Virus record (IMG/VR): IMGVR_UViG_3300032225_001105 | Coordinates: 1 to 26,466 of that record | Strand: one strand, 5' to 3' | Source: a virus | Lineage: Duplodnaviria > Caudoviricetes | DNA: 26,466 nt | In this document: positions 1-6,365 of the stretch, one piece after another | Numbering within the stretch: position 1 is the stretch's first letter | How the letters are laid out: every line of letters begins with the position of its first letter | The notes under the pieces: model-generated | Seen by the model: only the letters and a program-made list of their open reading frames with translations | Told to the model about the DNA's origin: nothing | Databases searched by the model: none | Made by a program: the position numbers and the translations under genes

Positions 1-114
1 GCGATCGACATTCCCGATGTGATGGAGTTTGCGGCGAAACACGGCAGGTGCGTCGTGTCGGTGACTAGCGAGGGATTTCACGACATCGAGATTTACGACG
101 ACTACCGAGAGTAG
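1..114 (+). CDS. 3' end of small phage hypothetical protein (partial; probable cassette gene)
   Basis: Open frame 1 reads AIDIPDVMEFAAKHGRCVVSVTSEGFHDIEIYDDYRE*; TAG at 112-114 sits immediately before the first attC-like site. Confidence 0.7.
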   Translation, partial: AIDIPDVMEFAAKHGRCVVSVTSEGFHDIEIYDDYRE

Positions 115-116
115 AA

Positions 117-172
117 GGCGAACACGCAGGATAAGCGGCGGCTTCGCCGTCCGCTTCATCCGCTGGTTATCC
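117..172 (-). repeat. attC-like site 1 (56 bp)
   Basis: + strand GGCGAAC-ACGCAG-GATAAGC-GGCGGCTTCGCCGTCC-GCTTCATC-CGCTG-GTTATCC; 7-bp and 8-bp L boxes pair with an extra C, plus an extra T further in. Confidence 0.85.
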
Positions 173-173
173 A

Positions 174-557
174 ATGAGCACACGATCACAGTTTGCGTTT
201 GCGGCTCTCGATGCTGGCATCCGCGTCGAGGAGAACCAAGCCGAATGGCTCGGAACGCCGGAGGCTTGCTGGGACGCATACGTTGCGAGCCGGGCGACGG
301 CCACTCGCGACCGGCTCGGGTGCGACGTGTATTGGATCGAGGCGACTTGTGGGAAGCAGACCTACTGGAAGATCGGCATTTCGCACGACGCCGAGAAGCG
401 GATGGAGGACTTCGCAAAGACGTTCCCGATTGCATCGTGGCGGATTCTGCGGACGTGCCGAATGGCGAGGCGGAAGGTAGCCGAGATATGCGAGGCCGAC
501 ATGCTCGTGTCGTGTCGCCACCTGCACATAGACGGGGAATGGATTCGGACTGGATAA
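174..557 (+). CDS. GIY-YIG superfamily protein (T5orf172/MUG113-like), cassette gene
   Basis: VYWI...WKIGIS....KR...GEW motif pattern; ATG just after attC1; stop TAA inside the R box of attC2. Confidence 0.7.
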   Translation: MSTRSQFAFAALDAGIRVEENQAEWLGTPEACWDAYVASRATATRDRLGCDVYWIEATCGKQTYWKIGISHDAEKRMEDFAKTFPIASWRILRTCRMARRKVAEICEADMLVSCRHLHIDGEWIRTG

Positions 558-599
558 CGATGCGATCTGCGGCTTGTCCGCAGCATCGCTTGGTTATGC
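552..599 (-). repeat. attC-like site 2 (48 bp)
   Basis: GGATAAC-GATGC-GATCTGC-GGCTTGTCC-GCAGCATC-GCTTG-GTTATGC; core nearly identical to site 4. Confidence 0.85.
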
Positions 600-625
600 C
601 GGGTTGATTCACACAGGAGAAGACG

Positions 626-850
626 ATGAAACCGGGTGACATTTTTGTTGGCAAGACATACCGCAACAAGGGCGCGGGCAGAACGACTCGCCGTGTGGTT
701 GACATGGGGACGCACTTGCCGCCGCCGCACTGGCTTTCAAACAACCCTCGCCCTGACGAGAGCGTGGTGGAGTTTGTACAGGGCAGGGAGACACACAGGC
801 TGTACCTGTCGTCATTCGCGGCGTGGGCTAATAGAGAAGTTGTGGCATAA
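626..850 (+). CDS. Small hypothetical protein (74 aa), cassette gene
   Basis: AGGAG RBS at 616-620; fills the space between attC2 and attC3; TAA lies in the attC3 R box. Confidence 0.75.
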   Translation: MKPGDIFVGKTYRNKGAGRTTRRVVDMGTHLPPPHWLSNNPRPDESVVEFVQGRETHRLYLSSFAAWANREVVA

Positions 851-934
851 CGCCAGAGATCACAAGCCGCGAACTAGGAGGGCGGCCCACATGAACGATA
901 CGAATGAGCGGTCTTGTGCATCGCGTGGTTCTCG
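845..934 (-). repeat. attC-like site 3 (90 bp), loop contains RBS and ATG
   Basis: GCATAAC-GCCAGA-GATCACA-AGCCGC...GCGGTCT-TGTGCATC-GCGTG-GTTCTCG; same extra C and T; AGGAGG at 876-881 and ATG at 891 inside the loop. Confidence 0.85.
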
Positions 935-1223
935 GCCAGTGGCGTGGGTGGTCGCTCTCGGCGGCGACGGGCTCATCATCGACGGCATCTTCCTGCGGAG
1001 GACGCAGGCGGAGGAAGCGTGTGCTTGGCGGAACGAGCACACCACTTACGGCGCAAGGATCATTCCACTCCACGAGAAGCCGCAGCCAACGCTCACCGAC
1101 GAGGAGCGGGAGGCGTTGTGGTGTGCCGTGTGCGACTACAACAGCATGACGAGAACGCTGGACATGCCGAGATGCGGGAAGATCGGCCCAGCCCTTGCGA
1201 GTCTTTTTGAGCGATTGAAGTGA
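891..1223 (+). CDS. Hypothetical protein (110 aa), cassette gene starting inside attC3
   Basis: In-frame ATG of track ORF 636..1223 with a strong RBS; MNDTNERSCASRGS...PQPTLTDEEREAL; TGA lies in the attC4 R box. Confidence 0.75.
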   Translation: MNDTNERSCASRGSRPVAWVVALGGDGLIIDGIFLRRTQAEEACAWRNEHTTYGARIIPLHEKPQPTLTDEEREALWCAVCDYNSMTRTLDMPRCGKIGPALASLFERLK

Positions 1224-1269
1224 GAACGCCAGCGATCTGCGGCTCGTCCGCAGCATCGCGTGGTTCTGC
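1221..1269 (-). repeat. attC-like site 4 (49 bp)
   Basis: TGAGAAC-GCCAGC-GATCTGC-GGCTCGTCC-GCAGCATC-GCGTG-GTTCTGC. Confidence 0.85.
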
Positions 1270-1327
1270 GGGTCGGTGGTTATAAATCTGTTGGGGTACG
1301 GCGTATTAGATGTAGGAGGACACAGCC

Positions 1328-1558
1328 ATGACCGGAAAGACAGTCACAATCGACCACGCCGAACTACTGCGTATCCGAAGCGCGCTTCACGGCGTGACGC
1401 TTCACTTTCGCGACCTGATGGAAAACGGCTTTCCGAAGCCGCCACGCAAGAACTGCAACGCCGACGCAGGGTCGGCGCATCAGGAATGGCTTGACGAGAG
1501 ATGGCAAACGCTGAACGTGGCAGGCGAAGTTCTCAAGGATACGGAGCACCTATGTTGA
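1328..1558 (+). CDS. Hypothetical protein (76 aa), cassette gene
   Basis: AGGAGGA RBS at 1314-1320 ahead of the ATG. Confidence 0.7.
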   Translation: MTGKTVTIDHAELLRIRSALHGVTLHFRDLMENGFPKPPRKNCNADAGSAHQEWLDERWQTLNVAGEVLKDTEHLC

Positions 1559-1659
1559 TTGCGTGCTGTGGCTGCGCGACTGAAGCAGGTATTTTGGCCG
1601 TCGTAGTGGGCGCGATATTCCTTTTTGCTTTCATTGTTCTTGAGTGCATAAGGATTTGA
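1552..1659 (+). CDS. Putative 35-aa single-pass membrane peptide (not in ORF track)
   Basis: MLIACCGCATEAGILAVVVGAIFLFAFIVLECIRI*; GGAG at 1543-1546; overlaps the previous stop and ends 7 nt before attC5. Confidence 0.5.
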   Translation: MLIACCGCATEAGILAVVVGAIFLFAFIVLECIRI

Positions 1660-1666
1660 GTTTCAA

Positions 1667-1755
1667 GCAGAACACGGAAGATCAACGGCGGCCACCGGAG
1701 GACTCACCATGACACATGACGCAGAAGGGCCGTCCGTTGCATCGGCTGGTTCTGT
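1667..1755 (-). repeat. attC-like site 5 (89 bp), loop contains RBS and ATG
   Basis: GCAGAAC-ACGGAA-GATCAAC-GGCGGCC...GGCCGTCC-GTTGCATC-GGCTG-GTTCTGT; GGAGG at 1697-1701 and ATG at 1709 inside the loop. Confidence 0.85.
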
Positions 1756-2326
1756 TTTGGGTTGCGCAGGAGCAAATGCCAAGGAGCGGCAAATGACCGT
1801 GAACAAGAATCCGATTGGGCGTTACGTCTATGCCTGGTTCAACGACGACAGCCCTTTTCCGTTCTATGTTGGAAAAGGCGTTGCCGACAGGGCCTGGAAG
1901 AGGCACATGCTGAAAGGGCAATCTGCCTTTTGCAACAAGATTCGCTCGGCGTCTTCTAGATTTTGGGTTCACATCGTAAAGGACGGACTTACGAACGAAG
2001 GGGCGATGCTGCTTGAGGCCGCCCTTATCGGCATGTTCTCGGCGATGGGGGGATGCGTTGCCAATCAGGTATCGCCCTTGCGTCGCCAAGAGGTTCCGCC
2101 GCTGTGGCTGCGTGACGTATTGGCTAAGCACGAGCCCGTGAGCCGATTGGTTCAGGACGAAGAATCAGAGGACGGACTTTTGTCCGAGATCATTGACGTG
2201 CTGGACGAAACGGAAGGGCGCGGGGCCTTGTGCCTCACGCCAGGCAGGATCGCAGAAAAACTTGGAGGCCGATACGGGCGCGAACGGATCGTAAACTGCA
2301 TGAAACGCCACGGCCTGAATCCGTAA
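1709..2326 (+). CDS. GIY-YIG nuclease-like protein (LEM-3/Seg-like motif) with possible C-terminal HTH; alternative start 1793
   Basis: YVYAW...PFYVGKG...RA..H...E..LI pattern; second RBS AAGGAG at 1781-1786 before ATG 1793. Confidence 0.75.
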   Translation: MTHDAEGPSVASAGSVLGCAGANAKERQMTVNKNPIGRYVYAWFNDDSPFPFYVGKGVADRAWKRHMLKGQSAFCNKIRSASSRFWVHIVKDGLTNEGAMLLEAALIGMFSAMGGCVANQVSPLRRQEVPPLWLRDVLAKHEPVSRLVQDEESEDGLLSEIIDVLDETEGRGALCLTPGRIAEKLGGRYGRERIVNCMKRHGLNP

Positions 2327-2360
2327 CAGAACCAGTGTTTATGCGGACCCGCATAAACAT
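2326..2360 (-). other. attI-like terminal recombination site or truncated attC
   Basis: ACAGAAC-CAGTG-TTTATGC gives R box, 5-nt spacer and L-like box; perfect 11-bp inverted repeat TGTTTATGCGG/CCGCATAAACA (2336-2359); no extra base and no closing GTT. Confidence 0.55.
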
Positions 2361-2461
2361 CCCCCATGCTGCATATCACGCCATAAAATCGCGCCGCACG
2401 GCCGCGAGGCGCGAAGCCGGGGCGTTATCGTGGTCCGCATAGTACGCCTGGATGATCCCCA

Positions 2462-2608
2462 GTGAGTGCCCACCTGATCGCCCTGACCGGCTGCATCTAC
2501 GCCTACGTCTGCCTTGAGCAGTTCTGGCGTGGCAACGTGCCGATGGCCGTAGCCTACGCCGGGTACGCATTTGCAAATATCGGCCTTTGGTTGCTGGCTT
2601 CTCGGTGA
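2462..2608 (+). CDS. Small hydrophobic phage protein (48 aa; not in ORF track)
   Basis: GTG start; MSAHLIALTGCIYAYVCLEQFWRGNVPMAVAYAGYAFANIGLWLLASR*; two hydrophobic segments; resembles small proteins I recall from aquatic phages. Confidence 0.65.
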   Translation: MSAHLIALTGCIYAYVCLEQFWRGNVPMAVAYAGYAFANIGLWLLASR

Positions 2609-2656
2609 TTCGGCGGCTGTCCATGCCCTCGTAAAATGGGGGTAAGGAGACACGCC

Positions 2657-2764
2657 ATGCCCGCCTACCTCGATGACGAGTTCTTTGAGGAAGTCGATGC
2701 CGAGCTAAGTTCGAGCGAAGGCATCGTGTGCATCGAGTTCCTTGACGGCCCGGCGGGCTACTGA
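2657..2764 (+). CDS. Small acidic protein (35 aa; not in ORF track)
   Basis: TAAGGAG RBS at 2643-2649; MPAYLDDEFFEEVDAELSSSEGIVCIEFLDGPAGY*. Confidence 0.55.
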   Translation: MPAYLDDEFFEEVDAELSSSEGIVCIEFLDGPAGY

Positions 2765-2779
2765 ACACTGGTACACTAG
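2761..2779 (+). promoter_or_regulatory. Putative promoter/operator ahead of head genes
   Basis: CTGAACACTGGTACACTAG contains extended -10-like TGG-TACACT; 15/19 match to 23352-23370; ACTGGTACACT matches 14097-14107 at 10/11. Confidence 0.45.
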
Positions 2780-2818
2780 TGGTAGGGATGCGGAAGCATC
2801 CCGCACCAGGAGCCTCCA

Positions 2819-3037
2819 GTGGCCGACAACTCCGACGTTCTTGACGCAGTGGCGGCGAATCTCGCCCAGCCGAAGCGTGCCCGCACGGACGCCGGCGAAG
2901 TGGAGCAGCACGACCTCGACAAGCAAATTGCGGCCGCCAAGTTCGTGATCGGCAATCGTTCGGCCAGCGGTGGCGCCTTCTCGCCGTTTGCCGCGGTGCG
3001 GCGGGCAAACATCGAACTTCCCGGGGGCTGCGGCTGA
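2819..3037 (+). CDS. Head completion protein, positional gpW analogue
   Basis: 72 aa, AGGAG RBS, stop overlaps the portal start; lambda-like position before the portal. Confidence 0.6.
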   Translation: MADNSDVLDAVAANLAQPKRARTDAGEVEQHDLDKQIAAAKFVIGNRSASGGAFSPFAAVRRANIELPGGCG

Positions 3038-4485
3038 TGGGGCTGCTCTCGTGGTTCAAGAAGCCGGCCGATCTCCGCCAGACGGTGGAATCGCAGCGTA
3101 TTGCCATCACCGAGATGATCCGTGCCCGGTACGACGCGGCACAGACCACGTCGCTGAACACCCGCCACTGGTCGATGGCAGACTTCCTTTCTGCCGACGC
3201 CGCCCTATCGCCGGAGGTTCGCCGGAAGATCCGCAGTCGCGTGCGGTACGAGGTTGGGAACAACTCGTATGCCGCCGGCATGGCAAGCACTTGGGCGCAC
3301 GACCTGATCGGCACAGGGCCGCGGCTGCAGCTCGACCTCGGCCCCGACGTGGACGCCGACCTCTGCCGCAAGGTGGAGCTTGCCGTCTACGACTGGTCTG
3401 TGGAGGTTGACCTAGCGAAGAAGCTGCGCATCGCCAAGATCGCCAAGATCAGTGACGGAGAGGTGTTCGGCATCAAGACGAACAACACACGGCTTGACGG
3501 CGTTCAGCTCGACGTGCGGCTGGTTGAGGCCGATCAATGTGCGTCCCAAAACGGATTTCCGACCGAGCAAGACATTGACGGTGTGGTTTACGACGAGAAC
3601 GGCGTTCCGTCACGCTACTGGATCCTCAAGCGTCACCCAGGCTCAAACTACGCCGGCTGGAACCAAGAAGGCCGCTGGGTGGACGCGAAGGACGTGTACC
3701 ACTGGTTTCACGCCACCCGCCCTGGTCAGCATCGCGGCGTGCCGGAACTTACGCCGGCGATCGAACTGTTTGCCCTCATGCGTCGGTTCACGCTGGCGAC
3801 CGTAACGGCCGCCGAGGTGGCGGCAGACTTCGCGGCGATCCTCAAGAGCACCATGTCGCCAGACCAAGTGGGGGCGGCCCATATCGCCGACTGGGAAACG
3901 ATGCCGGTCGTCCGCGGCATGATGACGGCGATCCCGGACGGCTACGACATCACGCAGATGCGGTCGGAGCATCCCGTTTCCACGCATGACCAGTTTGTGC
4001 GTCGGCTGCTGAATGAGTGCGCCCGTGCCGTCGATATGCCCTACATCGTGGCTGCGATGGACAGCAGCATGGCGAACTACAGTTCGATGCGCGGCGACTA
4101 CTTGGTGTATCGCAAGCGAATCAGCGTTGAGCGGAACGACGTGGAGCGGGTGTTTCTCGACCCGCTTCTCAAGGCATGGCTTGACGAAGCCGCCCTCGTC
4201 GCCGGGCTGATCCCTGACGGCCTGCCGCCGGTTGCTGAGTGGAACTGGTCGTGGTCGTGGGACGGTTTCGACCACGTAGATCCGCTCAAGGAGGCCGAGG
4301 CCGAGGCGGCCCAGATCGGCAACAACACCGCGACGCTGGCGGAGATTTGCCAGCGGCGAAACAAGGACTGGCGTCAAGTGTTGCGGCAGCGTTCTGTCGA
4401 AAAGTCGCTCGAGCGTGAACTTGGGATTGAGCCGGTCGTGAAGACGCCCAGCCCGGCCCCGGCACAGGAGAACGTACCCGCATGA
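3037..4485 (+). CDS. Phage portal protein, lambda family
   Basis: 482 aa; motifs R.R.R...NN.YA, DGEVF, RPGQ.RGVP, NYSS.R, VDPLKE are typical of lambda gpB-type portals. Confidence 0.92.
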   Translation: MGLLSWFKKPADLRQTVESQRIAITEMIRARYDAAQTTSLNTRHWSMADFLSADAALSPEVRRKIRSRVRYEVGNNSYAAGMASTWAHDLIGTGPRLQLDLGPDVDADLCRKVELAVYDWSVEVDLAKKLRIAKIAKISDGEVFGIKTNNTRLDGVQLDVRLVEADQCASQNGFPTEQDIDGVVYDENGVPSRYWILKRHPGSNYAGWNQEGRWVDAKDVYHWFHATRPGQHRGVPELTPAIELFALMRRFTLATVTAAEVAADFAAILKSTMSPDQVGAAHIADWETMPVVRGMMTAIPDGYDITQMRSEHPVSTHDQFVRRLLNECARAVDMPYIVAAMDSSMANYSSMRGDYLVYRKRISVERNDVERVFLDPLLKAWLDEAALVAGLIPDGLPPVAEWNWSWSWDGFDHVDPLKEAEAEAAQIGNNTATLAEICQRRNKDWRQVLRQRSVEKSLERELGIEPVVKTPSPAPAQENVPA

Positions 4486-6365
4486 GCCGCCTTGAACTCA
4501 ACGCCGACTTCAACCTTCTCGCCGCAGACGGCGAGGGCAGCGTCCCCACGTTTGAGATGACCGCCTACACCGGTGCCGCTATCCGGCAGGGGTGGAGTCG
4601 GACGCCGATCGTCGTTGACCTGGAGGGAATGTCGGCTGGCCAGACGACTCCGATCCTCTACGGCCACGGCAAGGAAATGCCGCTCCTTGACTCCGTGATC
4701 GGCAAGGGTTCGCCAACGAACGACGGCAAGCAGTTGATGCTGTCCGGCGACCTGATCGCCGGCGAGCCTGCGAGCGACAAGCTCATCCGGCTGGCCAAGG
4801 CCGGCGTGCCGCTTCAGGCGTCGATCGGGGCGGATGCCCTGTCGTTTGAGAACGTGCCCGCCGGCACGACCGTAACCGTCAACGGCCGCGACTTCGTCGG
4901 GCCGATCAGTGTTGCTCGCCGCACGATGCTTCGTGAAGTGAGCGTGGTTCTGTTTGGTGCGGACGCCAATACGTCCGCGGCTATCGCCGCCGAGGCGAAC
5001 GAGGTTTCACCCATGAGCGATCAGCTCAACGAGACGCCTGTCGATGCCGTCAAGGCTTCGGCGGAAGACACGGCGAGCGTCGCCGTGGAGAAGACCCCGG
5101 CCATCCAGGCCAGCCAGCCGAAGCCGCTGACGGCCGAGGAAATCGCCAGCGTCGTCCGCGAGACGATCAAGGCGGAGCGGCTGCACGAAGTTCGTGCCAG
5201 CCGGCCCGCTGCCCCGGTCCCGACGGAGGCCGACATCCAGGCCCACCGCTCAACCGAGGCGAAGGTGGCGGAGGCCACCCTGTGCATCGTCGCCGGCCTG
5301 CAAAACCTGGAGAAGCACTTCGACGAGCGGACGCTGGAGGCCGCCGACAAGCGGCGTTCCGAGGCTGGCCTGCAGTCGCTTCTCCTTGACGCTGCCCGTG
5401 CGAACGGGTGGAAGGGACACGACCGCAAGGTGACGCATGGCAACGCGAAGGAAATCTTCGCCCATGCGTTCGGGCAGATCCAGGCCACGGGTTTCGCGAC
5501 CCACAGCATCAGCAACGTGCTGGCCGCGACCTACGGCAAGTTCCTTCTGCAAGGCTTCAACGCCGTCGAGAACGTCGCCGACATGATCTCGAACGTCCGC
5601 CCTGTGGCTGACTTCAAGACCGTGACCGGCGTCCGCCTCAACGGTGGTTTTGTGTTTGAGGAGGTTGGTCCCAGCGGCGAGATCAAGTCGGCCGACGCGA
5701 CCGACGAGACTCGGACCCTCAAGGCCAAGCTCTACGGTCGTCTCTCGTCCGTGAGCATGGTGGACATCGTGAACGACGACCTTGGTGCTCTGACCCAGGT
5801 GCCGGTGCGTCTTGGTCGTGGTGCGGCGATCAAGAAGAACATCGACTTCTGGACGGAGTTCCAGGCGTCGAACAGTTCGTACTACCAGGCGGCAACGCCG
5901 GCTGGTGGCAACGCCCTGGCGTTCGCTTCTCTCTCCACGGCGGCGATCGCATACCGGAAGCTCCTGGACACGGACGGCAACCTCCTCGGCATCACGCCCA
6001 GGATCCTGCTCGTCCCGCCCGACCTGGAGCTGACGGCTGCCCAGCTGATGACGCAATCACTGCTCATGTCGTCAAGCCTCGGCTCGACCTCGAGCAAGGT
6101 TGTGGAGCCGACCGCGAACGTGCTCGCCGGCCGGTATCGGGTGGTTTCTTCGGCGTATCTCACCTCCACCTCGACGTGGTGGCTGATGGCCGATCCGAAC
6201 GACCTCCCGGCGATGGAGGTGGCCTACCTCAACGGTATGACCACCCCGGTTGTTCAGCAGGCCGATGCCGACTTCAACCAGCTCGGCATCCAGTTCCGCG
6301 GCTACTACGCCTACGGCGTGGCCAAGGCCGAGGCCCGCTCGACCTACCGCATGGCGACCTCGTGA
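4482..6365 (+). CDS. Fused prohead protease / scaffold / major capsid protein (Mu gpT-like capsid domain)
   Basis: N-terminal AYTG...VVDL.G...H...QASIG...L.EVS.V..GAD..T protease-like domain; C-terminal DFK, GEIK, YGR, IVNDDLGAL, P..LLVP..LE, EVAYLNG...P capsid motifs. Confidence 0.88.
   Translation: MSRLELNADFNLLAADGEGSVPTFEMTAYTGAAIRQGWSRTPIVVDLEGMSAGQTTPILYGHGKEMPLLDSVIGKGSPTNDGKQLMLSGDLIAGEPASDKLIRLAKAGVPLQASIGADALSFENVPAGTTVTVNGRDFVGPISVARRTMLREVSVVLFGADANTSAAIAAEANEVSPMSDQLNETPVDAVKASAEDTASVAVEKTPAIQASQPKPLTAEEIASVVRETIKAERLHEVRASRPAAPVPTEADIQAHRSTEAKVAEATLCIVAGLQNLEKHFDERTLEAADKRRSEAGLQSLLLDAARANGWKGHDRKVTHGNAKEIFAHAFGQIQATGFATHSISNVLAATYGKFLLQGFNAVENVADMISNVRPVADFKTVTGVRLNGGFVFEEVGPSGEIKSADATDETRTLKAKLYGRLSSVSMVDIVNDDLGALTQVPVRLGRGAAIKKNIDFWTEFQASNSSYYQAATPAGGNALAFASLSTAAIAYRKLLDTDGNLLGITPRILLVPPDLELTAAQLMTQSLLMSSSLGSTSSKVVEPTANVLAGRYRVVSSAYLTSTSTWWLMADPNDLPAMEVAYLNGMTTPVVQQADADFNQLGIQFRGYYAYGVAKAEARSTYRMATS

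Follow-up and report, generated by a model that had tools for sequence, protein, structure and literature searches.

Ribosome-binding sites and start codons in the attC-type hairpins of an integrase-less phage cassette array

Sites of the attC type are treated as the non-coding 3′ ends of gene cassettes, and as a hindrance to translation of the next gene. The DNA analyzed here (the window; the whole of a 26,466-base virus record that is 63% complete) raises the question of what such a site does when its loop holds a ribosome-binding (SD) sequence and an ATG, and of which gene that start belongs to. The explanation we favor, at a probability of roughly 0.72, is that the window carries five integron-type cassettes and an attI-like end, with no integrase gene, that each gene stands behind its own hairpin, that the SD and ATG in the loop likely start the protein, and that hairpin and gene are predicted to have been moved together by a host IntI.

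Five hairpin sites upstream of the head genes

Upstream of lambda-type portal and capsid genes (3037–6365, plus strand; Pfam PF05136 and PF25209), which share their strand with the cassette genes, we located five plus-strand hairpin sites, A to E, at 117–172, 552–599, 845–934, 1221–1269 and 1667–1755, and a sixth element at 2326. Site A (56 nt; DNA fold z = −3.5) is a short attC-type site with no start in its loop, and forms the 5′ end of cassette A, whose gene (174–557) encodes a predicted T5orf172/MUG113-like GIY-YIG protein (Atlas score 0.94; no Pfam match at E 0.01). The short attC-type site B (48 nt, with a left spacer of 5 nt; z = −4.6) precedes a 74-aa gene (626–850) that has its own SD, AGGAG at 615–619, and no family match. 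The long leader-type site C (90 bp) carries AGGAGG at 876–881, followed after 9 nt by ATG at 891, with T912 and C919 unpaired on the 3′ arm and a GGT codon at 927–929; the 110-aa protein of cassette C (891–1223) consists of a hairpin-coded leader, then a PVAW module and a TLTDEERE module. Site D, again short (49 nt; z = −3.3), heads a cassette with two genes, 1328–1558 (76 aa, own AGGAGG) and 1552–1659 (35 aa, hydrophobic), the stop of which lies 8 nt before its box. In the long leader-type site E (89 bp), GGAGG at 1697–1701 is followed after 7 nt by ATG at 1709, with T1733 and C1740 unpaired and GGT at 1748–1750, and the protein of cassette E (1709–2326) is 205 aa long if it starts at 1709 and 177 aa long if it starts at 1793. 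A preliminary description had pointed out the SD and ATG in the variable loops of the two long sites, in frame with the downstream gene, and these can be read directly in the window, as can the similar N-termini into which it had translated the right arms, MNDTNERSCASRGS at site C and MTHDAEGPSVASAGS at site E, both open through the arm. The stop codons said to coincide with the next box do lie inside AAC at 555–557, 848–850 and 1221–1223, whereas the stop at 2324–2326 overlaps the next element by one base only.

The cassette proteins matched no family in Pfam or NCBIfam; PHROGs placed the cassette E protein in one family of unknown function, and an Atlas score of 0.87 for LEM-3 GIY-YIG clusters provides a lead to a GIY-YIG-like protein. 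GIY-YIG-like proteins are accordingly predicted from two of the five cassettes (174–557 and 1793–2326), and an HNH-like one from the phage L001, whose portal is 98% identical; arrays of this kind may frequently carry nuclease-like cargo. At the same place (L001:6000–8770), L001 carries entirely different genes with related hairpins and the same end element. One near-identical E-type hairpin there heads the unrelated HNH-like frame, whose first 18 or so codons include no ATG of its own, and a frame upstream of the L001 array resembles a large terminase, judged by eye. Past the attI-like site and before the head genes, the two phages have in common a short conserved frame (window 2460–2608), beyond which their DNA differs. 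Rfam gave no match to positions 1–3000 at E up to 1, blastn with 100–2400 gave none among GenBank phages, and the search with the cassette E protein found no viral locus. A promoter scan of 1–3100 returned no sigma-70 consensus sites, and shuffles likewise returned none.

Read along the coding strand, the sites share one layout: AAC, 6 nt (5 in site B), 3 pairs, 6 pairs, the loop, an unpaired T and an unpaired C on the 3′ arm, six pairs apart, then 5 nt and GTT. All five thus have the AAC and GTT boxes, the 5–6-nt spacers and the intervening inverted repeat by which attC is recognized, and our structural site detector gave no hits in 414,664 shuffled bases. We assembled 352 distinct sites for covariation analysis, using collection patterns that fixed outer parts only, and found all six inner pairs to be Watson-Crick in 277 of them, against 65 (maximum 81) with shuffled partners. 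T occupied the second unpaired place in 322 of the 352, and in 285–292 of 306 long sites pairing resumed only when that base was skipped on the 3′ arm. Site lengths in viral loci fell into sharp classes of 48–51, 55–58 and 87–91 nt, with none in between. The accessible text of PMC5027507 describes, on the attC bottom strand, a conserved T, a 6-bp spacing and a first unpaired base that is usually G; this base is C in all five window sites and in host sites, though C was built into our search patterns. Because G is described there as “usually” present, we do not consider C disqualifying, and the aadA7 bottom strand (Table S3 of PMC9892861, as far as that source was available) has the same layout, with G where the window sites have C.

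We folded the minus strand as DNA and the plus strand as RNA only. Site C folded no better than shuffles (z = +0.5 for the DNA minus strand, +0.4 for the RNA plus strand), and its identification is based on layout and family covariation. Site E gave z = −3.1 as RNA, with its SD mostly unpaired in the centroid; when C and E were folded as RNA, each SD was placed in the loop, with little or no pairing in the centroid structure. Judged from sequence, the coding strand has the bottom-strand geometry of attC, and the sites appear reversed relative to the genes. It follows from this layout that each hairpin would stand at the 5′ end of its own cassette, and that an integrase should be expected to act on the coding strand, cutting between the AA and the C. 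The canonical cassette arrangement, with attC 3′ of a gene on the top strand, is absent from the array.

Linkage, exchange and the attI-like end

The GTT box of one site fully complements the AAC box of the next (4/4 variable bases) in 121 of 156 cassettes, compared with a null mean of 23 and 20 for boxes of the same site; cassette by cassette, the values in the window are 7/7 (site A GTT box with site B AAC box), 7/7, 6/7, 7/7 and 7/7. Such complementarity is compatible with either polarity; gene ownership is decided by linkage. Among 642 sites with flanks, grouped by common downstream or upstream DNA, the hairpin was kept in 45 of 102 groups with common downstream DNA and in 5 of 68 groups with common upstream DNA, against 5.9% at random; group counts were used because the pair count (42/68) was dominated by one cassette. 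The cassette A gene follows the same hairpin in loci L350, L269 and L374 with different upstream DNA, and in L350 and L269 the cassette and its upstream hairpin recur between different neighbors on both sides. Contigs from two other runs (the four runs compared belong to one study, and one of them, X1, may be the origin of the window DNA) track cassette D exactly to 1673, the C of the next AAC. At the level of sequence, the moving unit begins with the C of an AAC box and closes with the AA of the following box. In run X2, one contig has 2326 followed directly by 1668; an excised cassette E circle and a differently ordered array fit this junction equally, and we did not count it as a circle.

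Unlike hairpins nevertheless occurred in 36 of the 102 same-gene groups, and in 16 of 94 pairs even at 98% flank identity, so the linkage of gene and hairpin is far from absolute. We compared the hairpins in 29 groups in which the same gene has unlike hairpins, and found 14 exchanges of leader for leader, 11 between leaderless hairpins and 4 mixed (p ~5e-5 against an even split). In 12 of the 29, identity is lost within three bases of GTT, the sequences differing already at the third base before it, which fits exchange at that box; in 7, the two hairpins have 17 bases of the right arm in common, a feature seen in 4% of unlike pairs taken at random and compatible with homologous exchange within the arm. 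The portable start module proposed earlier is thus borne out as to exchange, which appears as a slower second process, but the module normally belongs to its own cassette: with the sites reversed relative to the genes, it would be the property of the cassette that it starts, and not lent downstream. Two further kinds of rearrangement were seen. Of 266 leader proteins, 45 include a TLTDEERE-coding stretch (1084–1115 in the window, and in many loci), which is combined with 40 different fronts and 40 different backs and represents a second, hairpin-free shuffling point. In locus L417 and proteins P0013, P0015 and P0017, a right-arm peptide (e.g., EPSGASAGS) lies inside longer proteins with the left arm lost, and reads as a decayed hairpin turned linker between fused cassettes.

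Most arrays have a conserved motif after the last cassette. We built a profile from 55 of 86 phage array ends, which matches 2330–2358 in the window (E = 6e-6) and, in 10 of 21 host loci (8 at E < 0.05; none in L159), single sites 110–300 bp from the intI stop. The element at 2326–2358 (minus strand; predicted crossover between 2331 and 2332) is in all probability a homologue of planctomycete attI and a putative entry site, which would give the array an attI at one end, as in a complete integron; a reading of it as another attC was rejected. The array genes point toward this site, so that a Pc promoter reading from attI would be antisense.

At the NCBIfam cut-off, IntI was found in none of 46 array-bearing virus records, of which 19 are at least 90% complete. 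The present 63%-complete contig likewise has no IntI, and thus no intI beside the array as a complete integron has; five attC-type sites with no integrase nearby correspond to a CALIN, for which at least two are needed. Among 151 planctomycete genomes related to that of L159, 41 have an IntI above the same cut-off, and from the homology of the sites we infer that the host of the phage is a planctomycete. Most of our 79 genome hits look like chance, 15 passed the structural detector, and some of the contigs may be misbinned phage DNA. Across 25 host loci, 47 of 60 cassette genes have the canonical orientation, and none of 66 chromosomal hairpins has an SD and ATG on this strand; since these sites of the same family lack a loop start, the start appears to be a phage-side feature of a host-type site. 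L159, a chromosomal integron in a Planctomycetaceae MAG, holds two reversed phage-type cassettes beside intI, likely by phage-to-host transfer. These (L159:113–830; G001:C92) adjoin attI and intI, and one of them matches PHROGs families. In L592 (7593 and 10956), L166 (1937) and L189 (6002), a host attC is followed by the same 2.3–2.4 kb insert or by a tyrosine-recombinase motif, which suggests a mobile element targeting these sites, and in L596 (G089:C51), in a genome with two integrons, intI is opposite in direction to that of the other host loci.

Two further accounts of the shuffling were weighed. In the first, the borrowed integrase serves as a gene factory, in which leader hairpins are joined at the GTT side to start-less DNA in a fixed GGT frame, giving new expressed cassettes in one step, while a second internal module is shuffled and varies the C-terminal half; we put this forward tentatively and hold it to be rather doubtful. 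In the second, which we consider unlikely, shuffling proceeds mainly by homologous recombination through a phage recombinase, with hairpins as repeats and with attC and attI as relics of a captured host integron. Homologous recombination would agree with the lack of IntI in the virus records, with the right arms shared in 7 of 29 exchanges and with the shuffling of a module that has no hairpin, but it sits poorly with the retention of both unpaired bases and covarying stems, with the complementarity of cassette ends across unlike hairpins, with the conservation of the attI-like site and with the phage-type cassettes in the host integron L159.

Reading frame and use of the loop start

For the analysis of the loop start we drew on 447 loci from viruses and metagenomes, 1.6 Mb in all and excluding genome hits; for many of them the flanks covered were no longer than 300 bases. 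The set comprises 532 units in 430 gene clusters; the hairpin families are related, and counts therefore overstate the number of independent events. The loop SD and ATG stand in the GGT frame of the right arm in 213 of 223 non-redundant cassette clusters, which is the in-frame preference that the preliminary description had expected of homologous arrays. The frame from the loop start covers at least 60% of the cassette in 185 of the 223 clusters, the shorter span in the remaining 38 being due partly to missed boundaries. When a pattern that left the loop unconstrained was used and no SD was required, ATGs fell in the GGT frame in 104 of 143 distinct long sites and in the other frames in 13 and 72; the 72 in a second frame indicate that bare ATG counts are noisy. 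At leader sites the three frames were open over 60% of the cassette in 178, 52 and 55 of 223 cases, compared with 40, 28 and 23 of 114 at short sites. Among leader cassettes, 55 of 223 have an SD-led start of their own; the corresponding figures are 79 of 114 for cassettes with short sites and 34 of 93 for those whose site is long but leaderless.

The same association was seen family by family. Fifteen of the 25 hairpin families with at least three members have SD and ATG in the GGT frame, among them family 6, to which site C belongs (16/16 units). In three families that have the ATG in another frame, the cassettes are open in that frame (8/9, 4/5 and 3/4; 15/18 together), and in the largest family, which is nearly leaderless (SD and ATG in 2/63), the frame bias is absent (20, 19 and 24 of 63). 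Within families the distance from AAC to ATG slips by single bases, while that from ATG to GGT is fixed or changes by multiples of 3. Leader variants include 37 of 64 possible synonymous and 84 of 278 non-synonymous changes, the synonymous class being about twice as saturated. Frame bias, length and substitution patterns thus bear the signs of selection on the reading frame. By a crude measure, the longest frame lies on the opposite strand in 109 of 430 clusters. We rejected the absence of in-frame stops as proof of coding; it proved unspecific, with stops in 0 of 242 leaders and in just 1 of 98 leaderless hairpins. Coupling through short out-of-frame leaders had looked good in 13 cases and was also rejected (12/23 vs. 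43/100 in controls). The suggestion that the leader could serve as a protein-level marker was well founded, SxASxGS being present in 180 of 247 leaders and [AP]SxG[SY] in 242 of 247. We regard the SD and ATG inside long hairpins as a real feature, widespread in this phage group, and the long hairpins of the window likely supply the first 13–14 residues of the gene travelling with them.

The two window leaders differ in how far their genes would depend on them. Seven close homologues of the cassette C protein (P0004 and P0007–P0012) are joined to leaders from other hairpins at this same G-S junction, and cassette C lacks an SD-led start beyond its hairpin; the leader is very probably essential at 891. 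Of 35 database hits to the cassette E protein, among them the database prediction for this very gene, none has the leader, although these starts are the choices of gene callers. As the ATG at 1793 has an SD of its own (AAGGAG, 1781–1786), the leader at 1709 may be optional. In-frame continuity with a cassette that has its own start was found in 42 of 65 cases behind leaders, compared with 45 of 145 elsewhere, which makes an optional extension at 1709 plausible, although the latter figure puts the baseline at 31%. In the comparison of these two starts, which the preliminary description had suggested, 1709 is open in frame, but 1793 has its own SD and the database calls on its side, and we lean slightly against 1709 as the main start of the cassette E protein.

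It is quite unlikely, in our estimation, that the loop ATGs are by-products, with the true starts downstream or with the leader merely a short ORF that recruits ribosomes. Site E fits such a case, its homologues being called from the equivalent of 1793; the part of the review PMC8876359 available to us reports that reinitiation is helped by short ORFs within attC, and ATGs stood in a second frame in 72 of 143 sites. On the other hand, 168 of 223 leader cassettes lack their own SD-led start, the frame follows the ATG even in odd-frame families, conserved motifs start 1–6 residues past the junction (PxAW in 44/266), and short-ORF coupling is no commoner than in controls. That the sites are attC in normal orientation, with a loop start lent to whichever cassette inserts downstream, as first proposed, is highly unlikely: family 1 hairpins do precede many unrelated genes (53 units, 46 gene clusters) and hairpins do change in 29 groups, 12 with breaks near GTT, but the coding strand has bottom-strand geometry, hairpins follow the downstream gene, the attI-like site is at the downstream end, and only 4 of 29 exchanges are mixed.

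On the explanation we favor, then, the array would be transcribed as part of the phage packaging and head transcript, and a planctomycete IntI would cut between AA and C and add cassettes at the attI-like site, the downstream end of the array. Because every gene begins behind a hairpin, we propose that a start site in the unpaired loop offers ribosomes an open landing place. The 3′ arm would become a leader of 13–19 residues ending in S-x-G-S, genes behind short or leaderless hairpins would mostly have their own SD, and hairpins would occasionally be exchanged at or just before the GTT box, leader-dependent genes usually receiving another leader.

Relation to known systems and significance

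Clusters of attC without an integrase are known from phages as CALINs, and IntI1, acting in trans, recombined 5 of the 6 sites that were tested (Qi et al., 2023; PMC9892861); the window array resembles them in this respect, and a Shewanella prophage CALIN in the same paper has its own attI. In contrast, the accessible text of that paper has no planctomycete phage, reversed gene-to-site polarity or start codon in attC. Short ORFs located within attC facilitate translation of the cassette that follows (Jacquier et al., 2009, as cited in the available text of the review PMC8876359), and in these too an initiation codon in the hairpin helps a downstream gene; as described there, however, they are short, act by termination and reinitiation, and lie in the canonical 3′ attC of the preceding cassette, whereas here the loop has its own SD and encodes an in-frame N-terminus of the same cassette. 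The same text describes ORF-11, ORF-17 and ORF-18 of attI1, in which a recombination site likewise gives an SD and an ATG to cassettes that have none and the frame crosses the GTT core, but from one fixed site and for the first cassette only, whereas here at least 15 hairpin families have in-frame starts, each start serving one cassette at any position of the array. Unlike a short ORF of the ORF-11 type, which stops near a downstream start, the two leaders of the window remain open in frame. In the gcuF1-blaOXA-28 fusion, a single case in the accessible text of PMC3375312, the frame also runs through attC into the next gene, but it begins in the gene of the upstream cassette and not in a hairpin. 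Comparable too are the chromosomal integrons of freshwater Planctomycetota, with an inverted-integrase arrangement (the term is from the available part of PMC4889954), which have the same hairpin geometry, closely related sequences and a homologous attI; they differ in their mostly canonical genes, in the lack of loop starts and in the presence of intI. Our literature search, for which subscription journals were mostly out of reach, brought up no publication in which phage arrays are reversed or starts are encoded in the loop.

The array is a variant of the integron cassette system, which works like an integron without an integrase and departs from both the canonical cassette and the complete integron. 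As far as the literature covered here shows, the reversed polarity with an attI and the loop-encoded in-frame leaders are new; phage CALINs, short attC ORFs and ORF-11 in attI1 were already known. The choice of start by gene callers is inconsistent in these arrays, which can be found from protein sequences alone by their S-x-G-S leader. The attC-type sites of these phages appear to have been turned into coding 5′ ends, under the double constraint of recognition as folded DNA and translation into a peptide. Should the shuffling be the work of a host IntI, these phages would be using an enzyme of bacterial adaptation to diversify their accessory genes, and would be exchanging cassettes with host integrons such as L159. 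Through leader exchange, the origin of cassettes becomes a question that can be tested, and the gene-factory reading, if true, would offer an observable route of gene cassette birth, with a peptide tag marking its products across protein databases.
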